Of a DNA stretch of 64,000 bases, positions 29,484 through 60,824 are shown in pieces (the stretch's first letter is position 1; the number at the start of each line of letters is the position of its first letter). Location of the stretch: the IMG/VR virus record IMGVR_UViG_3300010391_000273, positions 1 to 64,000 of that record. The stretch is one strand, 5' to 3'. The notes below the pieces were generated by a model, which was not told the DNA's origin, made no database searches, and saw nothing but the letters and a program-made list of their open reading frames with translations. Both the position numbers and the translations under genes were made by a program. This stretch comes from a virus.

Positions 29484-29553
29484 TGGATCCCCATGGTGGG
29501 GTTGAACCACCGTCTCCTGACCGGAGCCAGGCACTCTTCTGAGCTAATGGGGA
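29484..29553 (-). tRNA. atypical tRNA (short D-loop, 6-nt anticodon loop CUCCGG; Arg-CCG- or Gly-UCC-like), CCA encoded
   Basis: Acceptor UCCCCAU/AUGGGGA-U-CCA, D arm GCUC-AGAA-GAGU, T arm GGUGG-UUCAACC-CCACC. Confidence 0.7.
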
Positions 29554-35482: not shown

Positions 35483-38053
35483 TTAATTGACCCTCGTTCG
35501 TACATTGTTGGATCCTAGGACATAACGCTCTTGGGTTTTTGGCTTCATCCAAGGTTTTGGACCCGAAAATTCAGTACTTGAACGTCTTTCGTCTGAAGCA
35601 TGGGACATGACATAGTAAGCAAGAGCTACAACCGCATGGTCGTCTTTGTGGTCTGCCATAAATTCTGGTCGCTTTTGATCATAGCGCATTTGGGGAAGGG
35701 TCCTAACTAGATAGGGACATCCCTGGTGGCCGTAAGCAAAGAACTGGATTCGTGGGAGGTTTTCTCCAGCTTCTTCGGCTAGGACATTATGGATAGCTGA
35801 TGCAAAGACATCCCGTTTGTTAATGGAGCATTCCATAGGGATACCATTAATCTCATAAATCTCTTTAATGGTACGGATATCAGCTGTTGTGTTGATGTCC
35901 ATGGAAGGATCACAATAAGTGATAGCTACTTTGAAAACTCCAAGGCGGATGTCTTCGTCTTTGATATCTTCTGCAACTTGGGTGGCGGTGGTCTTGTACC
36001 AAATCTTCTCGTTGAAGACGATGTGCCTGTTTCCCAGGTGGGCTATCCATAGAACTACAGTAGGATCAGGGAACCAACCTGAATCGATAGCTCGATAGAC
36101 AGTGGCATATTTAAGTATTTTGGGTAGGTCGAGTTCAGGAGTAACATGGTAGGGCTTTCCTTCTAAAGTAGGTTTAAAGTCGAATAGAGCGTTTTCCATC
36201 GAGAATTCACCATCTACCCAAGCCTTTCTGACATGGGCTGGGAGGCCGGAGAATCTCTTTTTATACTCTATGGGGAGATAAGGGTTGTCTTCCAGGTTGG
36301 CTTTAATGGCGTACCAATCAGCTGGATTGTAGTCACGATCTTCCTCTGGGTCAACAGTTTTGTCTATAAAGTATTCTTGAATCTTCTGAGCTGACATTCC
36401 CATAGGATTTGTTAGGGCTCTAACGAGGGCACCACAATTCATGTTAACAGGGGCTCGGACTGAAGAGGCCAGTTTTCTAAAGTGTTCCCATTCAAAGGTT
36501 GAGACCTCATCAAACAGGGCCAGATAGAACTCACCTCCGAGAAGGTTTAGTACGTCTTCTTCCGTATTACAGTGGGAGAAGAAACCTGCTGAACCATTAG
36601 AATAGGTTAAAATATGTTTAGTTTGATTGTAGGAGGCCCCTAGAAGTTTAGCCTCCCTAGGGATGGCATAAAGGTGGGTATTATGAGTTGGGATAGACGT
36701 GTATCCAATAAGGTATTGATGTGAAGGATGTTCTACTGCAATACACTTACAAATAGTGTCCTCGACTTGTTCACACCCTATGATATAATGATTGCTTGTC
36801 GTTAATCTAGTAATTCTAGTTGATTTATAAGTCTCTAGATTTTTTAGTTTTCTAGGAAGTCTAAAAAGAGGTAAAGAACTTGTCCATTCAACTTTATAGG
36901 CTAATTGACAAACTGACCCATTTAACTTTGGTTGGTATTCTGTAATATTTGGTTTAAATCCAAGAGAAGACACTAATATAAGAACTTGATAAGCAAGGTT
37001 TTTATTCGAATTATAGAAACCAATTAATCCATCTTTTCTTCCATGTCCATCTGTATCTAAAAGTCCTTGTAATAGAGCAAGCCTATTGTCATAACTACTT
37101 ATAAGATAAGCTGCTGGAATATGCTTTTTATTTAAAAGCCCTTGAAGACGAAGTTGTTTTTGTAACCTTAGAATACCATAACCATATTGATTTGATGGTT
37201 GTTTTCTAACTGTGTAACCAAGTTCCACAACGTGTTCAAATATCTCTGGGTCATTTGACGTGATTGCTCCACAGTCTGAAGAACCGTCACCAAGCCATAC
37301 CCCTAGTACATAAGGATTTATAGGAAGGGGTTGATTATTCTGTGTTTGCCATGGTTTTGCAATAGGAATAGAGTGATTGGCTCGTAAACCATCTTCAACT
37401 TTTAATGTATTAAAAATCTCTTGAGTAGTTCGTATTTTTGGTGATGAGTTAATATAGGTTCTGGATTGGGCACCAGACTGTATTCTCTGTTGGCCCGACC
37501 TTTCTCGATGATTTGAGGTGACCCACAAATGACCAGCACTTACAATAAAACTTTCTTTGTTGTCAAACGTTATTTTGTAGGTTCCTTGTACATCAACTTT
37601 AGGAACCGACATACCAATAATTGTCGTGGGAGATCCATCTGGAGCAAAAACTTGATCGCCAATTTCTAAGGTACCCATGGTTTTCATACCATTTGGTGTA
37701 GGAATTAGGGTGTCCAAACTACAGGCTTTTTCAAGCTCGGGGAAAGTCCTTCTTAGAATGACATACTTATAATCTGGAATAGAGAGAGCCCTAATATGAG
37801 CATCCCACCTACCAGTTGTGGACTTGGCAGAACCTCGACCACCATAGAAAAGGACGTTTTCTTCGGTACGTTGGTGATATTCTACACCTTTTTCGGTGGG
37901 AACATAAAGAACCTCATTACCAACGATAACACTACCAACATTACACCATTCACAATTAATAGATGGAGGAATAAACTTATGCCTACCATCTGGAGAAGGC
38001 TTACAAATTTTAACTAGGGGGATTGTAGTAGGATAATATAGCTCGTTAGACAA
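35483..38053 (-). CDS. terL: terminase large subunit (intein-containing)
   Basis: Walker A GGRGSAKS, LRRTFPEL, Walker B LFDE, TNP, nuclease AIDSG and DHAVVAL. Confidence 0.92.
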   Translation of the reverse strand: MSNELYYPTTIPLVKICKPSPDGRHKFIPPSINCEWCNVGSVIVGNEVLYVPTEKGVEYHQRTEENVLFYGGRGSAKSTTGRWDAHIRALSIPDYKYVILRRTFPELEKACSLDTLIPTPNGMKTMGTLEIGDQVFAPDGSPTTIIGMSVPKVDVQGTYKITFDNKESFIVSAGHLWVTSNHRERSGQQRIQSGAQSRTYINSSPKIRTTQEIFNTLKVEDGLRANHSIPIAKPWQTQNNQPLPINPYVLGVWLGDGSSDCGAITSNDPEIFEHVVELGYTVRKQPSNQYGYGILRLQKQLRLQGLLNKKHIPAAYLISSYDNRLALLQGLLDTDGHGRKDGLIGFYNSNKNLAYQVLILVSSLGFKPNITEYQPKLNGSVCQLAYKVEWTSSLPLFRLPRKLKNLETYKSTRITRLTTSNHYIIGCEQVEDTICKCIAVEHPSHQYLIGYTSIPTHNTHLYAIPREAKLLGASYNQTKHILTYSNGSAGFFSHCNTEEDVLNLLGGEFYLALFDEVSTFEWEHFRKLASSVRAPVNMNCGALVRALTNPMGMSAQKIQEYFIDKTVDPEEDRDYNPADWYAIKANLEDNPYLPIEYKKRFSGLPAHVRKAWVDGEFSMENALFDFKPTLEGKPYHVTPELDLPKILKYATVYRAIDSGWFPDPTVVLWIAHLGNRHIVFNEKIWYKTTATQVAEDIKDEDIRLGVFKVAITYCDPSMDINTTADIRTIKEIYEINGIPMECSINKRDVFASAIHNVLAEEAGENLPRIQFFAYGHQGCPYLVRTLPQMRYDQKRPEFMADHKDDHAVVALAYYVMSHASDERRSSTEFSGPKPWMKPKTQERYVLGSNNVRTRVN
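36680..37726 (-). mobile_element. 349-aa class-3 intein with LAGLIDADG endonuclease in TerL
   Basis: Starts Ala (ACSLDTLIPTP), block B HLW, block F Cys (CIAV), ends PTHN before Thr; LGVWLGDG and LQGLLDTDG; excision restores RRTFPELEK|THL. Confidence 0.88.
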
Positions 38054-43868: not shown

Positions 43869-44149
43869 TTGTCGTACCACAGTCTCTGAAGATGGCGGAC
43901 CTCATGTGTACGACCCACAAGGATTACGTCATCGCGCCGTTTGATTGCCCAGGATGCACCCATGAGGCGCTCGCGCGCATGCAGACCCTTGCACCACACG
44001 ATGCGGTGGACGACCTCGCAGAGACAGTCGCGGTGCCCACTATCTGTTGCTGTGATGAGGACGTCACGGAACCAGATGGGTCGTACATAGGCACCAAGGG
44101 GTGCATGCACGATCCGCCAGCACCCTTCTCCTTAAAACACGACGATTAA
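43865..44149 (+). CDS. Cys-rich hypothetical protein
   Basis: ORF with several CxxC/CxH motifs. Confidence 0.45.
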   Translation: MIVVPQSLKMADLMCTTHKDYVIAPFDCPGCTHEALARMQTLAPHDAVDDLAETVAVPTICCCDEDVTEPDGSYIGTKGCMHDPPAPFSLKHDD

Positions 44150-44303
44150 GCCAACGGATGAGGTCAAGTCATGCTGTGGCGAAAGATGAAGGATCGCGGC
44201 GGGAAAATGTCCTCGGTGTGGAGATGCCCCAAGTGTAAACAGTGGAAAGTCGAGCTTCTAGCTGAGGCCTGTCACGCTTTGATAGAGTTCGACAAGGGGA
44301 TAG

Positions 44304-44564
44304 ATGAGAACAACCCTCTACCTAAGTAGGAGTACAAGGATGATCATCGAACTTGCGAACGGTGTAAAGGTTGCTACTAAAAGAGCTTCCAAGATCACAT
44401 TTAGGAAGATCGGGCTTCCCGGTTGGTGGCGGTGGTATCTCATCTACGATGCAAAGGGTGGGCAAAGCCGCAGTTTAGTAACCGTTCGTAGTATACAATC
44501 AATCAAAGGAGGAACTGATTATAGTCATTTCTTGGGAAGAAAAGAAAGTTCCTGTAAGTCGTAA
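44304..44564 (+). CDS. hypothetical protein
   Basis: ORF; AGGAG before internal ATG. Confidence 0.45.
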   Translation: MRTTLYLSRSTRMIIELANGVKVATKRASKITFRKIGLPGWWRWYLIYDAKGGQSRSLVTVRSIQSIKGGTDYSHFLGRKESSCKS

Positions 44565-44591
44565 ACGTAGGGGTTACATAGACTTAGAACT

Positions 44592-44801
44592 ATGAAACTC
44601 TCAAAAGATCACGCCATTCGAATTGCTGTCTCTCATCTCAAGGGAGTTGATCGAGACGCCGAGATACTTCGCTTGTGTAAACACCCCAGGCAAATCATGC
44701 GGGCAGCCCAGATCAAGATCATCTTGATTCGTCGGATGAAGGGTGTAAGAAAAGAGCACAAGCATAACCTTAACCCTTCGCATAAGTCATTGAGGTCTTA
44801 A
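44592..44801 (+). CDS. small basic protein
   Basis: ORF. Confidence 0.45.
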   Translation: MKLSKDHAIRIAVSHLKGVDRDAEILRLCKHPRQIMRAAQIKIILIRRMKGVRKEHKHNLNPSHKSLRS

Positions 44802-45205
44802 GCTATGTGGACACTACTTAATCAAAGTGGAACCTTGACATGTGGCATCTTTGAAACTGAGGAAGATGCCATCGACTGGTCAGAGAGGTTCCTTCCCAGT
44901 TTAGGTTTGATCCCAGTTGAACTCCTTATCTCAAAAGAGATGAAAATGAACATCACCATAACTACATGGGAAGGGCAAGCCCATACTTTCCCCACACCCC
45001 TGAGCATTAACTAGGATCAGGCTACAAGAGAGAACAAATCGCAAAGAGGAAGCAGGTTAGATCATGATTCTTCCAGGCTGGTCCTTTCCTATATCTCCAG
45101 AATTAGAGAAAGCCATCAACGATGGGATAGTCACGACTGAGTAGAACGCGAAGGAAAAGTTTACCTACGTAAAAGGTAAGTATGTAAATGCTCATGGGAT
45201 CGTGA

Positions 45206-45406
45206 TTGAGTTTCAATATGGAATATGAAGTAGTCGAGAGCGACTTCGAACCTGGTGTATGGAAAGTTGAAGTCCATGACCATAGGAGCGGTGATTGCTA
45301 TATCACAAACTTCTACGGTCCCAAGTCAAAGGAACGCGCCGTGGAGTATCTGGTGTTCAAAATAAAAACCTCCGCGCCATCTGACGTATTCCACGCTGTC
45401 ATGTGA
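45206..45406 (+). CDS. hypothetical protein
   Basis: W.VE......GDCY...F.GP...ERA.EY pattern. Confidence 0.55.
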   Translation: MSFNMEYEVVESDFEPGVWKVEVHDHRSGDCYITNFYGPKSKERAVEYLVFKIKTSAPSDVFHAVM

Positions 45407-45421
45407 AAGAGGCTATTCTAA

Positions 45422-45712
45422 GTGCCTAACAAGTATGAACTAGGTAATGGTCTCATTCCACTTGGTGCTAAACATGGCAGGTACCTCTATATCAAGTATA
45501 AGTGCAAGTGTGTAGTGTGTCGTAAAGCGGCTTCAGTCTACCAAGTCGAGAGGGTCAAAGCACTCGTAGCCCAAGGTAAGTGTAAGTCATGTGGGAAACC
45601 TCATGTTGATGGCCTTCAGTATAGGTGCAAGGCTTGCAATGAGAAGTCTACCATCTACAATAGGAAGATGAGGGAGACTAACAAGCTTTTAAAGACTCTT
45701 GGGGTTTTTTAA
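45422..45712 (+). CDS. Zn-finger protein
   Basis: HG...Y...CKCVVC, CKSC, CKAC. Confidence 0.55.
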   Translation: MPNKYELGNGLIPLGAKHGRYLYIKYKCKCVVCRKAASVYQVERVKALVAQGKCKSCGKPHVDGLQYRCKACNEKSTIYNRKMRETNKLLKTLGVF

Positions 45713-45800
45713 TCATGGAGTTCGGCAACACGGAGATGCCGTGGACGTACAATAAGGCGAAGAAGACGCTCACGCTGGACGAAGAGGCGTAGGACACATC

Positions 45801-45870
45801 GCGGGGATAGGATGACGTGTTATCCATCGGGCCGCGCCCGAGAGGCTGGTGTGACACCCAGTTCCCCGCA
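45801..45870 (+). ncRNA. tRNA-like element copy 1 (6-bp D stem, no CCA)
   Basis: GCGGGGA/UCCCCGC acceptor; GGAUGA-CGUG-UUAUCC; UCGGG/CCCGA; GCUGG/CCAGU. Confidence 0.7.
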
Positions 45871-46099
45871 CAGTTTGCCGGTTAGTTCAAAATTGGAGAT
45901 CGAGTTTGGATAACAAGTAGAAACAAGAAAGCTACTATTGTCCATCTCACTAGTAGTGGATGAAGATTGGAGGGTTTCTGGCCATTTGCCCTCGCTCATG
46001 GCGGGTCGGACTGGGGATCGCGCTGTGGAATACCAGTGCAGGGCTCCTGCCGATGATGGTCCGCTGATTGCACACCCAACAACTCAGGAGAAACGAATC

Positions 46100-46969
46100 A
46101 TGAAACGATTGACATGGGGATTTCTTGCACTCGTGTGTGTCTACAGTCTGCTCGTCGGCGGGTGTTCGTTGGACAAGGGGTCCACAGGGCCCTCGGCAGT
46201 CGAATTGGGGACTCCGGTGTCGCCAGGATCACAGCTGTACACCCTCGTGGGGAGTCAGTTTTTGGGGACATTGACCGCCAATGTGGGTGGCACCAGTGGA
46301 ACATTGGGCATCCTGTTTACCTCAGAAGGGGGCACCGCTGTGACCGCAACGGTGACGTTCAACGATGGCCAGGGCTATGTGGGCGATGCCGTAGGGACAC
46401 TGAGCAACCTCCATACACTCGCGCGCAACGGATTATCGGGTGGCGGGTGTACGGCATGGGAGAGTCAGGGAACGGTGACGTTGGCTGTGCCGCCTGCTCG
46501 CGACACCTACACAGGCTCGTACTACGCCACATGCCACAACAGTCCTTCAGCGGTGTTTGGTGATAGCGGGACGTTTGCTCTTTCCCGTACAGGGACATTG
46601 GGACTTCCGATTCCGCCGCCTCCAGTGATTGTAGACGTGTGTCCTAATCTTGAAGGGACACAGCTTGTCGTGCCAGCGGGATACGTCCTCACAAATGGGC
46701 AGTGTGTCCTGATTCCCCCTCCGCCACCGCCCCCGCTGCTCTGCTCCACGTCCTACTGGAGGATGAACAATGGGAACACGAACGCCAAACAGAACAAGTG
46801 CGTGAACAACGGTGGTACGTGGCTCGGAGAGTTTGACGTGCCGGGATCAGCAGCCGGTATCGAGCACGACGTATGCAAGTTCCAACCGAATCCACCGGGC
46901 GCACCAGGGAACGATGAGACATTGATCACGCCGCCTGGATTGACGCCGATTGCGTGTCCGATCTCGTAG
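46100..46969 (+). CDS. lipoprotein, beta-rich with Pro/Cys-rich C-terminus
   Basis: AGGAG RBS, MKR + hydrophobic stretch + VGGC lipobox; DVCPN repeat. Confidence 0.7.
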   Translation: MKRLTWGFLALVCVYSLLVGGCSLDKGSTGPSAVELGTPVSPGSQLYTLVGSQFLGTLTANVGGTSGTLGILFTSEGGTAVTATVTFNDGQGYVGDAVGTLSNLHTLARNGLSGGGCTAWESQGTVTLAVPPARDTYTGSYYATCHNSPSAVFGDSGTFALSRTGTLGLPIPPPPVIVDVCPNLEGTQLVVPAGYVLTNGQCVLIPPPPPPPLLCSTSYWRMNNGNTNAKQNKCVNNGGTWLGEFDVPGSAAGIEHDVCKFQPNPPGAPGNDETLITPPGLTPIACPIS

Positions 46970-47036
46970 GCGACAACTAACTACTAGTGAATGACGTGGA
47001 TTTCACTGCTAGATACTACCCAGATAGGCCTTTAAC

Positions 47037-47255
47037 ATGAGGTATTACACATACAACGAGCCTCCAATCGTACCCGGTGGTACACCCACTCAACCTATTC
47101 TTTCAGAGGCCCAGATCCTAGCGATCTACTTCCCATGTTGGTCTAAACAGATGAGGAAGGCAGGCAAACAGAATCTCATCAGCTTCGAGAATTGCATAAA
47201 GGATTGGGTTGTAGTCCATTGGGCTTGGGAAGTCCTTAAGCCATTAGATGTATAA
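47037..47255 (+). CDS. conserved phage hypothetical protein
   Basis: SE..IL..YF..W...M...ENCIKDWVVVHWAW. Confidence 0.6.
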   Translation: MRYYTYNEPPIVPGGTPTQPILSEAQILAIYFPCWSKQMRKAGKQNLISFENCIKDWVVVHWAWEVLKPLDV

Positions 47256-47462
47256 TCGTGCATGATCGTAACAGGAAAAAATTAACCATGATCTCAATCA
47301 TTCTCGGCTTTACGTTAGGTGGCCTAATCCCGGCCTATATCCTTAAGCATTACCAGGCCTATACATGCCTCGTTAACCTAAATTGTAATTGTAAATATGA
47401 TGAGGATTGGTTAGATTAAGTCTTCTAACAATCATGCAATGATCATCAGTCATGCAATGATC

Positions 47463-47585
47463 GGTAGTAGGTTGAAAAAGTCTCTCTAAGAACAAGTTAA
47501 ATCCTCAACCGTGCTGGGAGCTAGGTTGAACTCACTTGTCTATGATCTACTGATCATGTTAGAGAGACCTTTTGAGCCTACTGCC
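47463..47585 (+). ncRNA. putative structured ncRNA (~123 nt, long closing stem with branched interior)
   Basis: GGUAGUAGGUU/AGCCUACUGCC and GUCUCUCUAA/UUAGAGAGAC stems; inner ACAAGU/ACUUGU, UCAACC/GGUUGA, AUGAUC/GAUCAU. Confidence 0.6.
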
Positions 47586-47647
47586 CGGTCAAACCTCAAG
47601 GTAATAGGGTGTGAGGTGCCTTCACCTACCATCTTTCTCCCAACCCA

Positions 47648-48286
47648 TTGGTGGTAGGCTCAACTTTATCATTGCATAATGATATGCATGATTATTCTAA
47701 GGTGTTTAACATGATCGCGGCTAAAGTCGTCGTCGTCGTGAAGGATCCGTTTGAAGTCAGTCTCTTAACGAGTGAGGATGCGAACCTCCTTGTTCGTGGG
47801 TCAGGGCGTTTGCAAGATCATGCTGCTCGTCAACTCAAACCTGAGTCTGATCCTTTAGGGCTCCCTGTGAATGAGTGGCAATGTGTTCATGTGGAGACCA
47901 CCTACAAACAACAGGATGGAGCACCGAAAGGTGTCACCATTCCACAAAGTTTCCGGTGTACCCACTCTATCGATAATGGTGGGTTCCTTTGCTCGTACCA
48001 TGATCGACACCTTCTCTCAATCAAACTGAGCCCGGTTGACCAAGCCCAGTTCAAACTTTGGTATGAGACTCATGCCGCTGATATCGTGGTCGATGGCGTG
48101 ATCAAGGCTGACCAGCGTGAACTTAGGAACTACACCATCCAGAAGCGGTGGGGTCTCAAGATCCACACTTGCCCAACGCCGCCACAGCTTGTCAACTCCA
48201 AGACTGGAAAGACAAGAGAGATCGCTGTTGACCCTGAATGGGAGAAGGTGGAGCTTGTAGGGGCTGGTCAATCCGATGAAGTCTGA
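47648..48286 (+). CDS. hypothetical protein (start likely 47711)
   Basis: ORF with C...C...C..H ligands. Confidence 0.55.
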   Translation: MVVGSTLSLHNDMHDYSKVFNMIAAKVVVVVKDPFEVSLLTSEDANLLVRGSGRLQDHAARQLKPESDPLGLPVNEWQCVHVETTYKQQDGAPKGVTIPQSFRCTHSIDNGGFLCSYHDRHLLSIKLSPVDQAQFKLWYETHAADIVVDGVIKADQRELRNYTIQKRWGLKIHTCPTPPQLVNSKTGKTREIAVDPEWEKVELVGAGQSDEV

Positions 48287-48671
48287 GGACTACCTGAACG
48301 ACATACGGCTTAGCTCATTCAAGCCGCTGAAGACTCTTCCTAAGGAGTCTAAGAAGATTCTCTACATGACTCTCTTTAATGAGGGTAACAAGGTTCTTAA
48401 AGCTTATAACCCATGTCAAATTAAGGATGGGACGTGCGCCGGAAGCTATAAGGATGATATAGGCTTATGCTGTAATGGTTGTAAGCACCTTGGACCTCTT
48501 GGCTGTACTGTTGAAAGCCTAATGTGTAAGCTTTGGCTTTGTCAAGGTATCATACAAACACCAGCTGGTAAAAGTGCTATCTTAAGACTGATTCAACTTC
48601 ACCATGTAGCACGAGCATCTGGTGTACCTCTCGTAATGAGATCTTCATTTGAGGCATCTTTCAATGAATGA
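48276..48671 (+). CDS. Cys-rich putative Fe-S/Zn cluster protein
   Basis: PC...C...CCNGCKHL...GC......CKLWLC. Confidence 0.6.
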   Translation: MKSEDYLNDIRLSSFKPLKTLPKESKKILYMTLFNEGNKVLKAYNPCQIKDGTCAGSYKDDIGLCCNGCKHLGPLGCTVESLMCKLWLCQGIIQTPAGKSAILRLIQLHHVARASGVPLVMRSSFEASFNE

Positions 48672-48731
48672 CTACCTAGGAGAGCTGGCTCCACTCAAGA
48701 CTAAGCTTAAAATCTTCTATAAGTGTTTTGA

Positions 48732-49271
48732 GTGTGGACTCATTCGGCGAAGCCTTTTGGAGACCTAAATATGCGTGATTTTATCAAAGTGCCAGCTATG
48801 TTTTTTACCTATGGTTTTCTCTGGATCGCGATTCAAGACCGTAGTGTTGATGCTCTCGTGGCGATGATCTTACCTATAGTTATCTGGGTCTGGGCAGGCA
48901 CGACTGGTGAATATCCAACCTTTGATTGCACCTCGTGGGAAAAGAAGCTTGCAAAAGAGATTGAATATGGGATTGAGCAGACTCAAAAACAAGCAGATGA
49001 GCAAGAAAATGATCGACAGAGCGGTATACGGTGGTTCAGAGTTACTACTGGTAAACCATCAGTCCTTGCTCAAGCGTTCTATGTTCAGGGATCAGCCTAT
49101 GGACCTCAACGATATTTCAGGGCGAAAAGTTATTCTATTAACTGTGGGGCTCTTGTATTAGAAGGGCCGGTTTTACCAAAACGGAGCATTTCTGTTTTTT
49201 CTTCTGTATGGTTAGAGGATGCTCCACAGTGTATGTCAGCAGGATCTTGGTGCTCTATAGAAGAAATGTAA
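48732..49271 (+). CDS. membrane-anchored hypothetical protein
   Basis: Two hydrophobic segments followed by soluble domain. Confidence 0.5.
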   Translation: MWTHSAKPFGDLNMRDFIKVPAMFFTYGFLWIAIQDRSVDALVAMILPIVIWVWAGTTGEYPTFDCTSWEKKLAKEIEYGIEQTQKQADEQENDRQSGIRWFRVTTGKPSVLAQAFYVQGSAYGPQRYFRAKSYSINCGALVLEGPVLPKRSISVFSSVWLEDAPQCMSAGSWCSIEEM

Positions 49272-49324
49272 GGACTGTAATAGAAGGAAATCAGGAAAAT
49301 AGTATGACCCTTTGGTTCATCTCT

Positions 49325-49438
49325 GATAGATACAACGGGAGCACGATAAATATCTCCTTTGTTTCCATAACTCATTGTAACACACCCTTCACCATCGAAT
49401 AATCCGGCTAGATATTGAATAGAAACAGTCTTTTTCAT
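49325..49438 (-). pseudogene. truncated LAGLIDADG homing endonuclease
   Basis: IQYLAGLFDGEGCV...PVVSI, then the pattern is lost; own TTGACA-18nt-TAGACT promoter upstream. Confidence 0.7.
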
Positions 49439-49519
49439 TTTTAAATACTCCCAATAAGTTACAAACTTATAGTCTACTAGATAATAAAGAAGATTGTCAA
49501 CAAGATTAAACTGTTGAAG

Positions 49520-49775
49520 ATCAACAAACCGCCATTCGGACGGGGCTGCAATGCCCCCGACTCCACCATAACAAATTTAATGAGTATGGGGTCGACTTAG
49601 TTTCGACGGGTAGCTTAGTAGTTGATTGGAGGTTTAGTCGTAAGACCCACGAAACGGGTCAACCGATAGTCAACGACTATCAAATGGCAGCGTAAGCTGC
49701 AATCGACTTATAAGGTCTAATCACCTTTAGGTCCGGGTTTTGTGGGTTGTCCTCGGAACAGAATCAACCCTCTTT
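49520..49775 (+). ncRNA. ssrA: circularly permuted (two-piece) tmRNA; tag (A)NDYQMAA
   Basis: 3' acceptor half CGACUCC-A-CCA (49558-49568) precedes 5' half GGGGUCG (49588-49594) with G3:U70; pseudoknot UCGU/ACGA + GACCC/GGGUC; AUAGUC then tag 49672-49695. Confidence 0.88.
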
Positions 49776-49791
49776 CAAACAAGTTTTAAGT

Positions 49792-49913
49792 TTGTGGTGT
49801 CCAGACTCCTTAGAGGAAGAGGAGACACTCCTCACTTAAGCGGCTTAGGCTAGCAGGCTGACAGACGCTGGATGAGAGACCCCTTTGGCGTAATAGCACA
49901 CTAGGCACCACAA
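49792..49913 (+). ncRNA. putative structured ncRNA (Y-RNA-like candidate) upstream of TROVE-like/TerD gene
   Basis: 10-bp terminal stem UUGUGGUGUC/GGCACCACAA, inner GAGGAG/CUCCUC hairpin, UCCUUA near 5' stem. Confidence 0.55.
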
Positions 49914-49927
49914 TCAATAAGGTTAGA

Positions 49928-51667
49928 GTGTATATGATGAATCCAACTCTAGCTACGATTGACCTGTTCAATGTGGTAGTTGCCTCTGAGACTGGCTTGA
50001 ACCTAAGCCATGCTCCCTATGGGTTTGTGACCAACTTCCAGCCCACTCAGGAGCAGATTGAGGTTCTGAGGGAACGTTTCAAGGCTCTCTCCATCATCAC
50101 CCTGTTTTCGGTGAGGGAGCGGGAAACCGCAAGCCTTGACCAACTCCTTCTCAAGCAGCTGCTCCACTATGTCGAGGTATATGGGTTGGAGAGCCCAGGA
50201 TTGTTCAATCTTGAGGTGATAGGTGGGAGGGTTCAGACCATCTCCTATGTCAAAGCCATCTCGATAGGTGAGCTAGACAAAAAGATAACTGAACTACTCT
50301 ATGCCAATCGCCCCATAGATGATATCGCCCCTGTGCTTGAGATCATCTCACACTACAAGATCCTCTATGACTTTAACAAGATCAAGAATAACGAGCTAAA
50401 GGTCGCTCTCTTTGATATCTGTAGGGATACATTTGTATCTGGAGATGATGCAGTTCGTTATATCTGCTACAAAGCTACTAAGAGTACACTCCTTATCAAG
50501 AGCAAAGATGTCATTCAAAAGGTAGCAGTCAGTCAGCCTTCTGATGAGTTTCTATCCAAGCATGTAAAGCCATTAGCGCAGGTATTCAATCGACATAAGA
50601 GGATCATCCTCGCCTGTAAGAACAAGCTGAATCGTGGAGTGATTAACCGGATCTCAAAGCTGAGTAAAAAGGCTCATGTTCCTATTCATGAGGCAGTTTC
50701 CAAGAGATTCATCTCATCAGCAGTTAACGGAAAGGTTCCAACCAATCTTCTCGATACTGAGGCCATCACCCTTCGTGACAAGCTAAAGTATCTAAACTTG
50801 ATCGAGTATAGGCTCCTTGAGCTCCCCTTTGATACGTTCCTGATCAGGAATGGAAAGGTGTGGGCTGAGACAGAGCGAGCCATTCTCGATCCATCTAAGT
50901 TGACCACTCTTCGGGAACTTATTCTCAAGTCAATTTGCAAAGATTTGAGTGAACTGAGGGGTAAGTCCATCCTCCTCGATCCTGCCGTTGATTATGGCTT
51001 GCCTACCTCCCGGAAACAAGTTGTAGGACGACTTCCCTTCGGGACACGGGTTGAGGTTGATCCTCATGATGAGGTACTTTCAGCTGGAATCTACTGGCAT
51101 AACGACTCATGGGAGGGTCAATCAATCGATCTAGACCTCTCCGCCATAAGCTCAAGTGGTGGTCGTACTGGGTGGGGACATTACTCAAGCTTCACATCTA
51201 AAGATATCGTGTTCTCTGGAGACATCACGAGTGCTCCTGAGGGCGCTATGGAATTCATGATGGTTCATCCAAATGAGACCAATCGCTATGGTCTCATGGT
51301 GAATGTCTACAAGGGTCCAGATGAGTGTCCTATGGAGATTGTGGTGGGATCTTCTAACAAAAAGGATTGGCTTGATCTTGCTATCATTCGTGAGAAGATT
51401 GTTCTCAAGTCTAAGCAGAGCATCATTGGCTTCCTAAAGGACGATACCTTTGTCGTGTACACTGGGAGACTCAGCAATTCAAGGGTCTCGGCTGGAAAGC
51501 ATCCAGTTATCGACAAGGGCTTAGGCAATCTGTGGACGATCAAGACACTTTTGGATGAGTGTAAGGTCAAGTATGATTTTGTTCCCAAGGCGGGATTAGT
51601 CTACGACTTCGATCTGACCTATCAAAACTTCTCGCTTGACAAGCTAGAAATCCTCTTGGGCGTCTAA
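49928..51667 (+). CDS. ROT/TROVE-like helical domain fused to C-terminal TerD-like domain
   Basis: QLLHY, F.S.DD..RY, FNRHK, INRISKLSKKAH.P; AGIYW...IDLDLSA...FSGDITSAPEGAMEF. Confidence 0.72.
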   Translation: MYMMNPTLATIDLFNVVVASETGLNLSHAPYGFVTNFQPTQEQIEVLRERFKALSIITLFSVRERETASLDQLLLKQLLHYVEVYGLESPGLFNLEVIGGRVQTISYVKAISIGELDKKITELLYANRPIDDIAPVLEIISHYKILYDFNKIKNNELKVALFDICRDTFVSGDDAVRYICYKATKSTLLIKSKDVIQKVAVSQPSDEFLSKHVKPLAQVFNRHKRIILACKNKLNRGVINRISKLSKKAHVPIHEAVSKRFISSAVNGKVPTNLLDTEAITLRDKLKYLNLIEYRLLELPFDTFLIRNGKVWAETERAILDPSKLTTLRELILKSICKDLSELRGKSILLDPAVDYGLPTSRKQVVGRLPFGTRVEVDPHDEVLSAGIYWHNDSWEGQSIDLDLSAISSSGGRTGWGHYSSFTSKDIVFSGDITSAPEGAMEFMMVHPNETNRYGLMVNVYKGPDECPMEIVVGSSNKKDWLDLAIIREKIVLKSKQSIIGFLKDDTFVVYTGRLSNSRVSAGKHPVIDKGLGNLWTIKTLLDECKVKYDFVPKAGLVYDFDLTYQNFSLDKLEILLGV

Positions 51668-51676
51668 TTAGCTCTT

Positions 51677-51859
51677 GAAGCCAATAGAGTTCCTTAAAAT
51701 TTAATGCAAATTACTCTACGCTTCTAATTAAAAATATGGTTTAACTGGTCTGTATGAGCAAATAGGGTTCCTTAAACTTGGTTATTACCCTACGCCCTTA
51801 ACCTTTTCTCGACAAACAGAGTTCCTTAAAATTTTATACAAATTACTCTGCGTCGGGAA
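51677..51859 (+). repeat. array of three covarying hairpin RNA units (51677-51724, 51756-51797, 51806-51859)
   Basis: stem-MAA-YAGRGU-UCCUUAAA..AUU-ACYCUR-C-stem' with compensatory changes. Confidence 0.85.
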
Positions 51860-51904
51860 TCTCTACTAGGCCTATTAGAATAACTCGTCAGATAGGAGCC
51901 GCCC

Positions 51905-52429
51905 TTGTTTATTTGTGATGTATGTTCGAAGCCTGTCGGCCCTGGGGTCAAGCCCCTTATGCTCATCCTTCCGACTGATATGAGGCAGACTTCCTATCAT
52001 AATGTGATAGTCGATCCCGAGACTGAGGAGAAGTTTACCAAGGTCTCAAGTGGAAGTGAGTTCATCATCGAGTATAAAACGTGTGGTGCGTGTGCTGGAG
52101 TGGAAGCGAAGATTCCAACCAAGCCCAACCATACAGGCCACATCAACATCATGAGAGGTATGCAAGCTCATGCTAAGCTGTGTAAGAAGAAGTTTGACGA
52201 GTGTGGTCATTGTCAGGAGAATGTGGAGTTTTTCAAGTCGATTCCACTCGTGACCATAAATTTGGGTCTAACCGATCCTATGACAAAGCCTATGAAGGTT
52301 AGCATGGCCTACACAGTCGTGGAGAACATGCTCAGAAGGTCTAAGCACACCTCCATGCGGTCCAAGGCAGACTTTAACGTATCTTACCCCATTCTCAAAC
52401 AGTATGAGGAACGTGGAGGAAGTCTCTAA
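51905..52429 (+). CDS. Zn-binding hypothetical protein
   Basis: AGGAG RBS; CDVC, CGAC, H..LC...CGHC. Confidence 0.6.
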   Translation: MFICDVCSKPVGPGVKPLMLILPTDMRQTSYHNVIVDPETEEKFTKVSSGSEFIIEYKTCGACAGVEAKIPTKPNHTGHINIMRGMQAHAKLCKKKFDECGHCQENVEFFKSIPLVTINLGLTDPMTKPMKVSMAYTVVENMLRRSKHTSMRSKADFNVSYPILKQYEERGGSL

Positions 52430-52432
52430 AAT

Positions 52433-52503
52433 TTCGGGGATAGGATGACGTGTTATCCAACAGGTCGCAACTGTTAGGCCGGTTTCACACCCGGCTCCCC
52501 GAA
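52433..52503 (+). ncRNA. tRNA-like element copy 2
   Basis: UUCGGGGA/UCCCCGAA; D arm identical to copy 1; AACAG-GUCGCAA-CUGUU; GCCGG/CCGGC. Confidence 0.7.
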
Positions 52504-52599
52504 CAATAAGTCCGGTCAATATGCAATTTGGAACACGGGGCCACAAACGTTGAGTCCCATCACCTGTGTGTTTAAACCGTTGGTGCATCAGGAGTTACA

Positions 52600-52884
52600 A
52601 TGTTTACCTTGAAACCGAGCGACCTGTCTATCCTTTCAGAAATCAACGAGCTTTCTCATAGATATGGCGACATTTCTGGGGCGTACCTATTCAAATTAGG
52701 AGAGACGTTTCAATGGATGCCCCTCAAAGACTATCAAAGACGAATAATCAGGCTTGTAGACAACAAATACATCGATATTAAAGGCAACTTAGCCTTCCTA
52801 ACACCTCTTGGGACACGTGCCGTAGGGGGTGTCCTAACGAGGTCGGATGTAGTTGGAGTAGAGACAGAAGCCGAGCAGGCATAG
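52600..52884 (+). CDS. winged-helix-like protein
   Basis: IIRLVDNKYI...LTPLG. Confidence 0.55.
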   Translation: MFTLKPSDLSILSEINELSHRYGDISGAYLFKLGETFQWMPLKDYQRRIIRLVDNKYIDIKGNLAFLTPLGTRAVGGVLTRSDVVGVETEAEQA

Positions 52885-53088
52885 GCTGCTACTTTTTTAC
52901 CATTTTCCATTGTCCAGCTCATTAGAGGTTCAACCTGTAGCCTATGGTTTCGTCGTTTGACTATACCTAATTTTGAGTGGTCCTTTAGGTTTAGTTATGT
53001 TTATCTTTCCACTACTCCTCGTTTTATGTGCTGTTTGGGGTTTTGGAATTTAGGAAACTTGGAAAAGCTATGCAAAATTATTGTAATC

Positions 53089-53316
53089 ATGACTAATCCC
53101 ATTCAAAGGATGAGAGAGCGTGTTTGGAACTACATGAACGAAGACTATGATATTGACGACTCTTATGCTGTCGATATCATGGAAGACTTCTTGAAGATGT
53201 TAGGGACAACGCTACCACACTCAGAGAACGATTTTAATAGAGCCTCCATTTTAGACGATCCTAAGATGGAGGAGTTCCTACTCAATGTCGAGATGAACTT
53301 GAGTGGTGGCGGTTAG
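53089..53316 (+). CDS. small acidic protein
   Basis: 3' part of ORF 52957..53316 from ATG 53089. Confidence 0.5.
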   Translation: MTNPIQRMRERVWNYMNEDYDIDDSYAVDIMEDFLKMLGTTLPHSENDFNRASILDDPKMEEFLLNVEMNLSGGG

Positions 53317-53353
53317 AGGTTAATCATGCATGATCGTAAGCGGGGTGTAAGTT

Positions 53354-54232
53354 ATGAAGAAGATCATCATGGTAACCCTAGGCATGTTGAGTGCTGGCCT
53401 TCTGTGTGCCCAAACGGGGAAACTGTATATTGGTCCAGAGAACCCCACAGATACCCGGTGGGCTACTAAAGCAGACTTTGATGGCTCCATTATCTTTTGC
53501 CGTGGGTTCTATACGAGTGATCGACAAGAGGCTAATGGGGGTGGATGGTGGACCGATTACCCAGGCGGTGATAACAATTTCCTTGTGAGACTCTCTGAGT
53601 TGACGGAGACTCGGGTAAGGTTCTCCAAGGATCGAATTCCCTTCTTTGTAGTTGTGCATCTGGACGATCCGCTTCTGTTCAAATGTCCGATCCTGTTTAT
53701 GGAGGATGTAGGGACAGTACGATTCACCGATCGGCAAGTGGAGATGCTCACACGATATTTTGCTCAAGGTGGCTTCTTGTGGGTTGATGACTTCTGGGGC
53801 TCACAAGCTTGGGAGCAGTGGGAGTATGAGATTCGACGGGTCTTACCATCGGGAACCCATCCGATGTTTGACATCCCTACCGACCACCCGATTATGCACA
53901 TGCTGTATGAGGTGCCAAAGATTCATCAGCAGCCCACAATTGGGTTATGGAACACAAGTTGCTCGGGCGATGAGTTTGACTCTGACGCCACAGTCATTCC
54001 ATGCCTTGATCAACGCTGGCCCACCTCCGAACGTGGGGCCGACAGCGCAGAAGTCCACTTTAGAGGCATTCAAGATGAGAATGGCCACCTCCAAGTCGTC
54101 ATGACACATAACACAGACATCGCGGATGGCTGGGAAGAGGAAAAGCCCAATAACATGGCCTACATCCATGAGTTTTCCGCTAAGTGCTACGCGATTGGCG
54201 TCAACATCTTTTTATATGCGCTTACCCATTAA
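53354..54232 (+). CDS. DUF4159-family exported protein
   Basis: WWTDYP, GGFLWVDDFWG, HNTDIADGWE, IGVN...YALTH; signal peptide. Confidence 0.85.
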   Translation: MKKIIMVTLGMLSAGLLCAQTGKLYIGPENPTDTRWATKADFDGSIIFCRGFYTSDRQEANGGGWWTDYPGGDNNFLVRLSELTETRVRFSKDRIPFFVVVHLDDPLLFKCPILFMEDVGTVRFTDRQVEMLTRYFAQGGFLWVDDFWGSQAWEQWEYEIRRVLPSGTHPMFDIPTDHPIMHMLYEVPKIHQQPTIGLWNTSCSGDEFDSDATVIPCLDQRWPTSERGADSAEVHFRGIQDENGHLQVVMTHNTDIADGWEEEKPNNMAYIHEFSAKCYAIGVNIFLYALTH

Positions 54233-54425
54233 CAACCGTTTTAGAGGTCTAAATTGAAAGCTACCGAAAAGCGCAAGATTATTCGGCTGCGTTGGGCACA
54301 GAAGATGAAAGAGGGTGACACGAACGATGCTTCAAGTGGCAATTGGGGCAAGGCCGCCAACGCCACCACTGAACACCACAATACTTGGGGATCTAGCCAC
54401 GGAAGATAGTTACTGAGGTCATCTC

Positions 54426-54833
54426 ATGTTATTCCTGGTCTTACAACTTTGGACTTCCCTAATGAGTCCCTACGATCGTCAGCATGAGGTAAAGCTCTTC
54501 GGGAATTGGCAAAGTTGTTTGCAGGATGATAACACGTATGGTGAGAGGATTTATGATCATGTAGTTGGTAGTAAGTTCCTTTGGACCTTTCATATGGGAC
54601 CCATGGATGAGCTTGCCTTTTATAGTGGGTCTGGTCCCGAAGATGATCTCCATGATCATGATAATACACTAAACTTGCTCATGCCTGCCTATAGAGTATT
54701 TAGCGTCTCAACTTGGAAAGGCAAGCGTAATTGGTCTATCCCATCTTTTAAGCTTCATATCAGCGTGGTAAGTGCAGGCGGGAGCCGAGATGAGTGTGAG
54801 AGCTTCATTGTTAAGATCGAGGGGACACGATGA
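54426..54833 (+). CDS. exported hypothetical protein
   Basis: Hydrophobic N-terminus, beta-rich body. Confidence 0.5.
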   Translation: MLFLVLQLWTSLMSPYDRQHEVKLFGNWQSCLQDDNTYGERIYDHVVGSKFLWTFHMGPMDELAFYSGSGPEDDLHDHDNTLNLLMPAYRVFSVSTWKGKRNWSIPSFKLHISVVSAGGSRDECESFIVKIEGTR

Positions 54834-56980: not shown

Positions 56981-57427
56981 ATGAGACTTGAACCAACAAA
57001 CTCAGGCTCACTACGCTGGTTCATTTTGGAAGATGAGGCTTATACTGATGCGGGCTATGACAACCCACCTAGATCAACTCTCTTAAAGATTCTAGGACGC
57101 CATAATCTAACAGTCGCACTCAGTTCTGATGAGGCTAAGCTTAAATTTGATCCTAGAGCTTGTTATACGCACATGATCATCGATTTTGATATGCACGGGT
57201 TCCCCAATCCCGATTTGACCTTTCCTAACACTGGATTAAACTTCATTCAGTGGATGGTAGCTAGACATAAGCTTCTAATTCCAACCCCAGAGATTTTCCT
57301 CCATTCTCAAAACGTTAGAGGCCGAGAAGCTATGGCTAAACTTCTAAAGGTCTCAGGTTATAAGAAGGTAAGTCAACACTACTTTGGTAGAGACTATTTG
57401 GCGATGTTGAGTGAGAGGTTCCTATGA
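56981..57427 (+). CDS. cyclic-phosphate-processing receiver-like domain protein
   Basis: ILED, IDFDM, TG..FIQW, HSQN..G...M. Confidence 0.6.
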   Translation: MRLEPTNSGSLRWFILEDEAYTDAGYDNPPRSTLLKILGRHNLTVALSSDEAKLKFDPRACYTHMIIDFDMHGFPNPDLTFPNTGLNFIQWMVARHKLLIPTPEIFLHSQNVRGREAMAKLLKVSGYKKVSQHYFGRDYLAMLSERFL

Positions 57428-58341: not shown

Positions 58342-58614
58342 ATGTCTAAAGGCCGGAGAAGTTACAGGCATCTTAGTGAAAAATGGGTTGCAATCTTAAG
58401 AAAAGACCCTTGCTCATTTTGTGGAGTGAGAGCCTCTATCACGATTGACCACATTTTCCCTTTGAGCAAGTTTAATGAACTTAAGACTTATTCTACGTTT
58501 GGTCCCAATAATTGGGAGAACCTTACTGGAGTCTGTTGGGATTGCAATGAATTTAAAGGAACAACTAAATTGTTAAGATTCCTTGTGGAGGCTCATGAAA
58601 ATCTACTTCATTAA
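58342..58614 (+). CDS. HNH endonuclease
   Basis: CSFCG...TIDHIFP...NWENL...CWDCN..KG. Confidence 0.85.
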   Translation: MSKGRRSYRHLSEKWVAILRKDPCSFCGVRASITIDHIFPLSKFNELKTYSTFGPNNWENLTGVCWDCNEFKGTTKLLRFLVEAHENLLH

Positions 58615-58794: not shown

Positions 58795-59682
58795 ATGAGT
58801 TACATGCACATAGACCTACTTTACAAGTGCCCAGACATCTTAGCTTTTAAACAACTCTTTGCCTTAGAGAAGATTCATGGGACGAGTGCTCACCTTAGAC
58901 TTAAGCTTGGGGAGATTACCTACTTCTCAGGTGGGGAAAGTCTAGGTAAGTTTAGAGCCTTGTTTGATGATGACAAGCTTCATGAGGCCTTTAAGACTAA
59001 GTTTGGTGAGGCCGATGTAGTTACCATCTATGGTGAGGCCTACGGAGGTAAACAACAGGGCATGAGCCATACCTATGGGCCTGACCTGAAGTTTGTGGCC
59101 TTCGAGGTCAACCTGAACGAGATGTGGCTGAGTGTTCCTCAAGCTCACGACTTCTGTACGAGTTTTGGAATTGAGTTTGTAAGTTATAATCTTGTAAGCT
59201 CAGACTTAGAGACTCTTAATGCTGAGCGTGATTTGCCTTCTGTGCAAGCCGTGAGAAACGGAATTACTGAGCCTAAGCTCCGAGAAGGCATCGTTCTGAG
59301 ACCTCCCTTCGAATGTAAGACTAATAGGGGTAGGCTCATCTCTAAGCATAAGGGTGAGGCTTTTGACGAGCGCGATAAGCCTGTTCACCCTGTCGATCCA
59401 GCAAAAGCTGATGAACAGGTTAAAGCCGAAGCCATCGCCTTTGAATGGGTAACACCTAATAGGCTTGAACATGTAATCGACCATATGGTTGCCATGCGGG
59501 AGGATAAAGAGGTTGGTATGGAAGATGCAACAGCCCTTATTGCTGATATGGTTGAAGACATCACCCGAGAAGGTGCAGGTGAGGTTGAAATGACTCCCAA
59601 ACTCAATAGGAAGGCCATAGGAGCCCAAACAGTGAAGCTTCTTAAGGCTAGACTCCAAGCAAGACTAGAACAAGCATCATGA
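58795..59682 (+). CDS. RNA ligase, Rnl2-like family
   Basis: Motif I EKIHGT, IYGE, FVAFE, REGIVLR, KHK...F.E. Confidence 0.8.
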   Translation: MSYMHIDLLYKCPDILAFKQLFALEKIHGTSAHLRLKLGEITYFSGGESLGKFRALFDDDKLHEAFKTKFGEADVVTIYGEAYGGKQQGMSHTYGPDLKFVAFEVNLNEMWLSVPQAHDFCTSFGIEFVSYNLVSSDLETLNAERDLPSVQAVRNGITEPKLREGIVLRPPFECKTNRGRLISKHKGEAFDERDKPVHPVDPAKADEQVKAEAIAFEWVTPNRLEHVIDHMVAMREDKEVGMEDATALIADMVEDITREGAGEVEMTPKLNRKAIGAQTVKLLKARLQARLEQAS

Positions 59683-60824
59683 CTTTAGATCCTGAGCTAT
59701 TCGATGTCCATGAGAAAGACGGCCTTAGACTTATCATTCCAGCTAGGAATGGGTCTGTAGCCAACGCCCCATGGTCTAAAGAAACTGTTATGTATCGGTC
59801 TAGAGTGGAAACTTTAGAAGGATTAGTTGTTTCTCAAGGCTTTGGTAAGTTCTTCAATTTGGCGACTGGGCCTGATGGTCTAAGGGTCGAGCTTGATGAC
59901 TTGATCAAGGCAACTGAGAAAAGTGATGCTATAGCAACCCTTAAGATCGATGGCTCACTCCTGATTAGGTCGGTTTATAATGGCAAGATCATGCTCAGGA
60001 CTAGGGGCAGCTTTGGGTATGAGTTCTTAGATAACGCCGATGAGATCGACCTCTTTAGAGCTAAGTATCCACTTGTCTTTGATCCTAGCTTATTTGTGGG
60101 TTATAGTCTCCTATTTGAGTGGGTAAGCCCGAGGAACGTAATAGTTCTTAAGTATCCTGAGCCTAACATCATCCTAATTGGGGGTGTGCAGCATACTCCA
60201 GACTTACCATACCTGACGTTTGCCCATAGTCAGTTGGACTTCATTGCAAAACGTTTAAATGTGCCGCTTGTTACCTCCTTTGATTTGACTTCTGAGGGCT
60301 GGGCTGAACTTCATGCAAACTTGGAGTCTAACCAAGAGATTGAGGGTTATGTTATCAGGCTTCATAATGAGCAAGTCTTAGTCAAGGTGAAGTGTGCCCC
60401 ATATTTGACTAAGCATGGGCTTAAATCGACCTTGACAACCGAGAAACTCATCGACATGTGGTTCCAGCAGGGATCACCTGATTATCAAGCTTTTTGTGCA
60501 ACTTTCCTTGCAAGTTTTGACGAGGAAACCTTTATGTGGACCTTGGGGGCTATCTCAAGTCTCTTTGATGGGATTAGAACCCTAACCAAGATCATGAACC
60601 ATATGGGCGGTAAAGTCGAGGTTAGGAAGAATTGGCCTAGAAAAGAAGCTGCCCTAGCTGGGCTAGCCGAGTACGGTCAAACTAAGAGATTCTCGGCTTA
60701 CATGAACTTGTGGGAAGGTAAACAGCCTAGCTTTGATTTGCTTAAATCGCTTCTGTTGCAAAATACCAAGCAGGTCGAAATTGAAATGTTCAAGGCTACA
60801 GGCCCAGCTATTTTAGGAGATTAA
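59679..60824 (+). CDS. RNA ligase, T4 Rnl1-like family
   Basis: KFFN, motif I KIDGSL, TRGS, FEWVSP.N.IV..Y, EGYV, KVK...Y. Confidence 0.85.
   Translation: MTLDPELFDVHEKDGLRLIIPARNGSVANAPWSKETVMYRSRVETLEGLVVSQGFGKFFNLATGPDGLRVELDDLIKATEKSDAIATLKIDGSLLIRSVYNGKIMLRTRGSFGYEFLDNADEIDLFRAKYPLVFDPSLFVGYSLLFEWVSPRNVIVLKYPEPNIILIGGVQHTPDLPYLTFAHSQLDFIAKRLNVPLVTSFDLTSEGWAELHANLESNQEIEGYVIRLHNEQVLVKVKCAPYLTKHGLKSTLTTEKLIDMWFQQGSPDYQAFCATFLASFDEETFMWTLGAISSLFDGIRTLTKIMNHMGGKVEVRKNWPRKEAALAGLAEYGQTKRFSAYMNLWEGKQPSFDLLKSLLLQNTKQVEIEMFKATGPAILGD

Follow-up and report, generated by a model that had tools for sequence, protein, structure and literature searches.

Two dispersed copies of a tRNA-like element lie in the genome of a phage known from the IMG/VR record IMGVR_UViG_3300010391_000273 (98,575 bp, rated complete by CheckV), the first 64 kb of which formed the window analyzed here. 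Each copy folds into a four-arm cloverleaf that is kept by selection, and in our judgment the two are probably structured, tRNA-derived RNAs that do not decode. Among known RNAs, tRNA mimics come closest to them. They do not belong to the ordinary tRNA family (RF00005), to the tRNA-Sec family or to the YrlA family, because a defining feature of each of these was tested for and was lacking.

Two paralogous copies of a tRNA-like cloverleaf

The two copies (Table 1) align without gaps over 70-71 nt, with 15 differences and ~80% identity. A preliminary description of this DNA had pointed to an identical core common to both stretches, and we confirmed it as an invariant block of 25 nt, element positions 2-26. 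A run of at least 25 identical positions would arise by chance with P ~0.0075, as estimated by a simulation with 15 random substitutions. No third copy of the block was present in the 98,575-bp genome when up to three mismatches were allowed. The core also holds a 5-bp inverted repeat, GGATA-N11-TATCC, with a spacing of 11 bp. Copy 1 starts 8 nt past a TAG stop codon (45790-92) and is followed, ~230 nt downstream, by a likely lipoprotein gene; copy 2 starts 4 nt past the TAA stop codon of a 174-aa Cys-rich open reading frame (ORF; 51905-52429) and ends 96 nt before an ATG at 52600. Each copy is followed, 8-9 nt further on, by a weakly conserved 3' trailer, CCGGT-N(10-11)-A(A/T)TTGGA, which occurs at these two places only in the whole genome and could form a short CCGG/UUGG hairpin. 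The presence of the trailer behind both copies indicates that the duplicated unit measured ~100 nt.

The cloverleaf was the minimum-free-energy fold of each copy, with z scores of -2.7 and -3.8 against shuffled sequences, and RNAalifold returned the same cloverleaf. It follows the tRNA plan: the acceptor stem has 7 bp, the anticodon and T stems have 5 bp each, and acceptor and T stems together give a 12-bp stack. In the supplied structure, 45 of the 46 pair cells held standard pairs, the sole unpaired cell being A26.G42 of copy 1. The stem differences between the copies had been described as compensatory, and we found this to be correct: four pairs (1:69, 27:41, 29:39 and 47:60) changed on both sides, one G-U pair became G-C, and not a single pair was newly broken, even though 10 of the 15 differences fell at paired positions. 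In simulation, the survival of at least 22 of 23 pairs after 15 random substitutions had P ~2-5e-4. The cloverleaf was lost on the reverse complement, and the G-U pairs of the D and T stems exist on the plus strand only. Since the two paralogues have diverged by compensatory changes, we conclude that the fold lies beyond chance and is under selection.

The loops and single-stranded positions depart from those of tRNA at several places. In both copies the D arm consists of a 6-bp stem (pairs 10:25 to 15:20, one of them G-U) closed by the loop CGUG; an alternative reading gives a 4-bp stem with the loop GACGUGUU. The T loops, UGUGACAC and UUUCACAC, have 8 nt each and keep only U54 and A58 from the T-psi-C motif. 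The centre of the anticodon loop is CGC in both. The 6-bp D stem with its 4-nt loop, the 8-nt T loops and the central CGC had been listed in the preliminary description and were read directly from the two copies, as were the lack of a long variable arm (the variable region is 2 nt, and nucleotide 26 is absent), of a G3:U70 pair and of an encoded CCA (the 3' tail is ACA in both). The tRNA residues retained in both copies are U8, A9, G10, G53-C61, U54 and A58.

The anticodon-like arms differ between the copies. That of copy 2 has a 5-bp stem and the 7-nt loop GUCGCAA, with U33 and A37. In the gapless register, copy 1 has the loop GCCGCGC, with C33 and G37, on a stem AUCGG/CCGAG that contains an A.G mismatch. 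The compensatory change that had been proposed for these stems held, but the reading of UCGGG/CCCGA as a clean 5-bp stem did not, as it leaves copy 1 with a loop of 5 nt. In copy 1, a clean 5-bp stem and a loop of 7 nt exclude each other; the minimum-free-energy anticodon arm is a 6-bp stem closed by a CGC triloop.

We searched for relatives of the elements with a covariance (structure) model built from them, R2. On the phage's own genome R2 matched the two copies only (scores in Table 1). A megablast of positions 44000-54500 against phage records gave no homologue, and a blastn search of the same records with copy 2 at the 'distant' setting returned only chance matches of 18-23 nt in protein-coding genes. 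Pattern scans of IMG/VR with the exact 21-mer core, a degenerate 24-mer and a T-arm/acceptor pattern likewise gave no homologue. One JGI metagenome, scanned with the degenerate 24-mer, yielded seven loci, none of which was matched by R2, and we treated these as chance. In five relatives that carry a homologue of a neighboring 579-aa protein (see below), R2 matched only a genuine tRNA (17.5 bits) and a fragment (12.9 bits) at the corresponding loci, and the whole records gave nothing more; a further locus, L017, gave no match with the filters off. A descriptor search for compact-D cloverleaves recovered no other element with an 8-nt T loop lacking TTC. When IMG/VR was searched with one protein at a time, first the 579-aa protein and then the Rnl2-type ligase, no close relatives turned up. 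The elements are, so far, two paralogues in one phage, for which the earlier term 'family' was too strong.

Comparison with tRNAs and tRNA look-alikes

At default settings ARAGORN called neither copy. At the relaxed setting -ps80 it called copy 2 as Ala-cgc, among ~70 mostly false calls. Rfam matched neither copy to any family, tRNA and tRNA-Sec included, whether the gathering score was applied, the cutoff was relaxed to E<=10 over 10.5 kb, or slices of 96 nt were searched with the laxest filters. The Rfam search itself works, because an odd tRNA elsewhere in the window scored 44.7 bits for RF00005 at the same lax setting. Overall, no good match to a known tRNA or Rfam family was found. The D loop lacks the GG of G18 G19, and the T loop lacks TTC and has 8 nt instead of 7. 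The 3:70 pair (alignment pair 3:67) is G-C in both copies, and the alanine identity pair G3:U70 is absent. An encoded CCA is present in all four ordinary tRNAs of the phage (29484 on the minus strand, 65144, 73955 and 74287), each of which has a TTCGA-type T loop. GCG, the codon for a CGC anticodon, was the rarest alanine codon in ten phage genes sampled (20 of 255). No clear parent isotype emerged from a comparison with 127 ARAGORN-called tRNAs of the phage and its relatives, in which the best global alignments scored 10-12, against 40 between the two copies. The earlier proposal that the elements are structured tRNA-like RNAs and not decoding tRNAs fits the missing default ARAGORN and Rfam calls, the missing D- and T-loop signatures and CCA, the defective loop of copy 1 and the strong compensatory evidence for the cloverleaf.

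A likeness of copy 1 to initiator tRNA, in the C1 x A72 register with UCGGG/CCCGA, was considered and dropped, as copy 2 does not share it. Two tRNAs of the phage are unusual in their own right. The odd tRNA of the window (29484-29553, minus strand) lies in the structural-gene block and has a canonical T arm, a CCA and a 6-nt anticodon loop, for which ARAGORN reported a 2-nt 'anticodon', cc; it can alternatively be read with an 8-nt loop on a 4-bp stem, and it was missed by the whole-window gathering run. At 65144-65239, outside the window, ARAGORN called a tRNA-Ile(tat) of 96 nt, in which a long class II-like variable arm and a CCA form an unusual combination.

Set beside ordinary phage tRNAs, the elements share the cloverleaf, the 7-bp acceptor and 5-bp T stems and the retained residues listed above; like such tRNAs, they are intergenic, lie on the early-gene strand and are found near a transfer-messenger RNA (tmRNA) gene and the gene of a TerD-domain protein. 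Unlike them, the elements lack an Rfam or default ARAGORN call, G18 G19, T-psi-C, nucleotide 26 and CCA, and have an 8-nt T loop and a 2-nt variable region, with no usable anticodon loop in copy 1.

A 6-bp D stem with a 4-nt loop is also found in tRNA-Sec, and tRNA-Pyl and mammalian mitochondrial tRNA-Ser(UCN) likewise have compact cores. The elements resemble these compact-core tRNAs in several respects: the D stem is extended and its loop is small, GG and T-psi-C are missing, and the variable region is short, as in tRNA-Pyl and the mitochondrial tRNA-Ser. The likeness to tRNA-Sec (RF01852) resides in the D stem and its loop; the elements have neither its long variable arm nor its UCA anticodon and gave no Rfam tRNA-Sec match. 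The 13-bp acceptor/T stack of tRNA-Sec would be possible in copy 2 only, where the eighth pair is U-A, whereas copy 1 has C x A at this position. In contrast to tRNA-Pyl, there is no CUA anticodon, and a 6-bp anticodon stem is not common to both copies. We found no dedicated synthetase or SelB-like gene among the phage proteins scanned.

Like YrlA and other bacterial Y RNAs (PMC4201824; RF02553), the elements are non-decoding tRNA look-alikes that a phage or bacterium encodes close to genes for RNA repair. YrlA differs in having canonical T and D loops and, where a tRNA has its anticodon arm, a Ro-binding stem formed by the 5' and 3' ends. In the elements the two ends pair as an acceptor stem, there is an anticodon-like arm, and the loops depart from the canonical type; in addition, no TROVE gene was found in the phage, and Rfam gave no match. 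A further comparison is offered by the phage tRNAs that counter tRNA-targeting host defenses, as described in two reports (PMC10264068, PMC11555353). Those RNAs and the elements are alike in being tRNA-shaped, here in a genome armed with Pnkp, Rnl1, Rnl2 and cREC. However, the defense-countering tRNAs are fully functional decoders with altered anticodon loops, whereas the conserved part of the elements is the acceptor strand and D arm and not the anticodon loop.

Genomic setting of the elements

The genome has a GC content of 44.6%. Its structural genes occupy the minus strand up to ~41.5 kb, and from 41,668 to the end the genes lie almost throughout on the plus strand. Both elements are found in intergenic spacers of this plus-strand block, co-directional with all flanking genes. 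No paralogy was found between the proteins that flank copy 1 and those that flank copy 2, and a scan for promoters and terminators near the elements gave no site above the shuffled background. The phage occurs, in near-identical form, in two DNA metagenomes that a single study obtained from sediment. One of these is probably its source, and no variant was seen inside either element in the two metagenomes.

Downstream of copy 1, ~230 nt of G+C-rich and apparently non-coding DNA (45871-46100) extend to what is probably the real start of the following gene. The product of this gene starts with MKRL and carries a lipoprotein-type signal ending in LVGGC, and is likely a lipoprotein; a long TTG-started ORF from 45938 is probably over-extended.

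Table 1. Coordinates of the two elements, their parts and associated features
Feature	Position	Strand	Remarks
tRNA-like element, copy 1	45801..45870	+	R2 96 bits
Copy 1, acceptor stem	45801-07/45863-69	+	
Copy 1, U8 A9	45808-09	+	
Copy 1, D arm	45810-25	+	
Copy 1, anticodon-like arm	45826-42	+	
Copy 1, variable region	45843-44	+	2 nt
Copy 1, T arm	45845-62	+	
Copy 1, 3' A	45870	+	
tRNA-like element, copy 2	52434..52503	+	R2 99 bits
Copy 2, acceptor stem	52434-40/52496-502	+	
Copy 2, D arm	52443-58	+	
Copy 2, anticodon-like arm	52459-75	+	loop GUCGCAA
Copy 2, T arm	52478-95	+	
Invariant 25-nt block (element positions 2-26)	45802..45826, twin 52435..52459	+	5' acceptor strand, U8, A9, whole D arm
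Weakly conserved 3' trailer	45878..45897, twin 52512..52532	+	8-9 nt past each element
Permuted (two-piece) tmRNA gene, between the elements	49463..49773	+	RF04321 69 bits; RF01849 55 bits
579-aa protein	49928..51667	+	helical N-terminal part and TerD-fold C-terminal domain (structure prediction)
cREC receiver	56981-57427	+	
Rnl2-type ligase	58795-59682	+	
Rnl1-type ligase	59679-60824	+	
T4-type Pnkp (polynucleotide kinase-phosphatase)	genome 76769-77638		outside the window

Between the elements lie the permuted tmRNA gene and the gene of the 579-aa protein. This protein has more than 876 metagenomic homologues, at ~45-59% identity, and matched no Pfam family. Its predicted structure (mean pLDDT 80) contains a TerD fold that aligned to 2qz7_B with Z 7.1 and rmsd 3.7 over 142 residues, and Foldseek matched the C-terminal domain to 3ibz with a probability of 1.0. 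The helical N-terminal part, modeled alone, gave no clear match, the best being Z 6.5 to a small helical segment. A TROVE-like protein had been proposed at the outset as a possible partner of the RNAs, and our results do not bear this out: PF05731 (TROVE) had no match in the genome while its controls matched, the D. radiodurans Rsr structure (2nvo) gave only Z 3.1 and rmsd 5.0 against the 579-aa protein, and the C-terminus is a TerD fold.

Five IMG/VR phages were found with a homologue, at 43-48% identity, and all five have its gene within a large array of ordinary tRNA genes. A permuted tmRNA lies directly downstream of the homologue in two of the five (L014 and L016), and GOLLD and skipping-rope RNAs are nearby in another (L015). 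A 56%-identical relative on a 4-kb contig of a metagenome-assembled genome has an ordinary tRNA-Val with CCA ~420 nt downstream. Apart from the 579-aa gene itself, the region of our phage has nothing in common with those loci, and none of them holds an R2-like element. The place of the homologue genes in tRNA arrays, together with the retention of U8, A9, G10, G53-C61, U54 and A58, suggests that the two elements descend from tRNA genes of such an array.

The family of the 579-aa protein, tRNA-array-linked, large and uncharacterized, may be more interesting than the two elements. One of the array tRNAs of a relative (L014, 5747-5816, plus strand) has a compact D arm and an anticodon loop centered on TTA, and could be an ochre suppressor. 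Directly 3' of the 579-aa gene of our phage, at 51679-51852, are three direct repeats with hairpin potential, in units of 23-38 nt at a spacing of 54-78 nt.

Further along the genome are genes for RNA repair: a cREC receiver, Rnl2- and Rnl1-type ligases, and a T4-type Pnkp. In phage T4, Pnkp acts with Rnl1 to mend tRNA that has been cut by an anticodon nuclease. The phage studied here evidently contends with damage to tRNA. A role in phage RNA repair has been described for cREC and RNA ligases (PMC7824862), and phage tRNAs counter tRNA-cleaving defenses, according to the two reports cited above (PMC10264068, PMC11555353). An HNH endonuclease ORF (58342-58614) lies just upstream of the RNA ligases. 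LAGLIDADG domains, as intein-like or homing-endonuclease insertions, are found inside the large terminase subunit (35483-38053, minus strand) and inside a PD-(D/E)XK nuclease (genome 80905-82875, plus strand).

Possible roles of the elements

The reading that we prefer is that the elements are non-decoding tRNA mimics, cut from an early transcript and bound by a specific partner; as a complete chain this is a tentative account, to which we give a little less than an even chance. Transcription would take place on the plus strand, together with the early/middle genes, which form a long block from about 41.7 kb onward. In the RNA, the invariant GUG(U) of the D loop is complementary to the invariant ACAC of the T loop, and this contact could hold an L shape in place of the usual elbow contacts of G18 G19 with T-psi-C. 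Because a 7-bp acceptor stem is stacked on a 5-bp T stem, host RNase P and 3' processing enzymes would probably excise the elements. Excision would divide the polycistronic transcript at two points, 4-8 nt past stop codons, and would release stable RNAs of ~70 nt, which would be neither charged nor able to read codons because CCA and a sound anticodon loop are missing. In the least certain step, the frozen acceptor and D-arm face would be bound by one specific partner, for which the RNAs would serve as mimics or decoys. In a phage with a full tRNA-repair kit, this partner might most plausibly be a host tRNA-targeting factor.

A more pointed form of this proposal, which we regard as rather unlikely in all its parts, is a class of phage tRNA mimics in which the elbow of G18 G19 and T-psi-C is replaced by a Watson-Crick kiss between GUGU and ACAC. 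Here, the acceptor and D arm would be bait for a host factor that attacks or modifies tRNA, and the two copies cut from the early transcript would protect the tRNA pool alongside Pnkp, Rnl1, Rnl2, cREC and tmRNA.

Several observations weigh against the mimic proposal. With only two sequences, covariation lends no support to the parts that do not vary (acceptor pairs 2-7, the D arm and the proposed loop-loop contact), and their identity could come from gene conversion and not from constraint. The CGC common to both anticodon loops is statistically unremarkable (P ~0.11 by our own count). The non-canonical elbow and the missing CCA may weaken recognition by RNase P. No homologue was found elsewhere in phage records, IMG/VR, one JGI metagenome scan or five distant relatives, and there is no specific tie between the elements and any defense system. 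The runs listed with the phage are the two DNA metagenomes, with no RNA run among them.

Of the other explanations, the one that fares best, though we consider it unlikely, is that the elements act only in cis, as punctuation or stability signals. They would then be entry points for RNase P/Z (or RNase E) or would protect the 3' ends of the upstream mRNAs, and the released RNA would have no function. The placement of each element 4-8 nt past a stop codon, in an intergenic position of a co-directional block, agrees well with such a role, as does the lack of a promoter- or terminator-like site above background nearby. Precedents are found in the tRNA punctuation model of mitochondria, in the release of mascRNA from MALAT1 and in the cutting of bacterial operon mRNAs by RNase P. 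However, the shape of an acceptor/T minihelix suffices for processing, which leaves unexplained both the 25 invariant nt over the D arm and the anticodon-like arm upheld by two compensatory pairs.

It is improbable, in our view, that the 579-aa TerD-domain protein or the RNA-repair enzymes use the elements as ligands or cofactors, in a ribonucleoprotein such as that of Y RNA with Ro60. The two copies do bracket the protein gene and the tmRNA, the homologues of other phages are associated with tRNA arrays, tmRNA and GOLLD RNA, and Ro60 occurs with a tRNA-like partner in some jumbo phages (PMC7824862). Nonetheless, the TROVE identity of the protein is not supported, and the elements have no terminal Ro-binding stem of the kind found in Y RNAs. 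The homologues also occur where there is no R2-like element (in the whole records of five relatives and at L017), which argues that the protein does not need this RNA.

We give even less weight to a signal at the DNA level or a relic, that is, an operator formed by the inverted repeat, attL/attR sites of an inserted 6.6-kb cassette that holds the tmRNA and TerD-protein genes, or a pair of tRNA pseudogenes in decay. The elements are direct repeats that share all 25 bp of the core, and the cassette between them has as its key gene one that moves among phages; both points would fit such an origin, and so would the 5-bp inverted repeat with its 11-bp spacing within the core. Four compensatory pairs with none newly broken speak against both decay and a purely DNA-level role, the fold and its G-U pairs are strand-specific, and the absence of a third copy is unlike the usual sets of promoters or operators. 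We discarded the attL/attR version on the evidence of pair 1:69, whose two sides change together (G-C versus U-A) with the identical core between them. Each copy thus hangs together as a unit, unlike an attB/attP hybrid.

Least probable of all is that the elements are real decoding tRNAs with a CGC anticodon and a core as compact as that of tRNA-Pyl or mitochondrial tRNA-Ser(UCN): compact tRNAs without GG or T-psi-C do function in other systems, copy 2 has a well-formed anticodon arm and the relaxed Ala-cgc call, and the retained tRNA residues are in place, but copy 1 has C33, G37 and a loop closable to 3 nt, AlaRS would find no G3:U70, CCA is missing although every ordinary tRNA of the phage encodes it, Rfam gave no tRNA match, and GCG is the rarest alanine codon in the sampled genes.

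The finding comes from one metagenomic phage, known from its DNA alone. Phage-encoded tRNAs take part in the conflict over host defenses that cleave tRNA, and the pair described here provides a clean, small case in which the fold has been selected while the face formed by the acceptor strand and the D arm has stayed frozen. Were the elements processing signals only, a virus of bacteria would have its own counterpart of tRNA punctuation. Should the RNAs be produced and have a binding partner, they would be an example of a tRNA shape whose elbow has been rewired, and would direct attention to a factor able to read tRNA from its acceptor/D-arm side.

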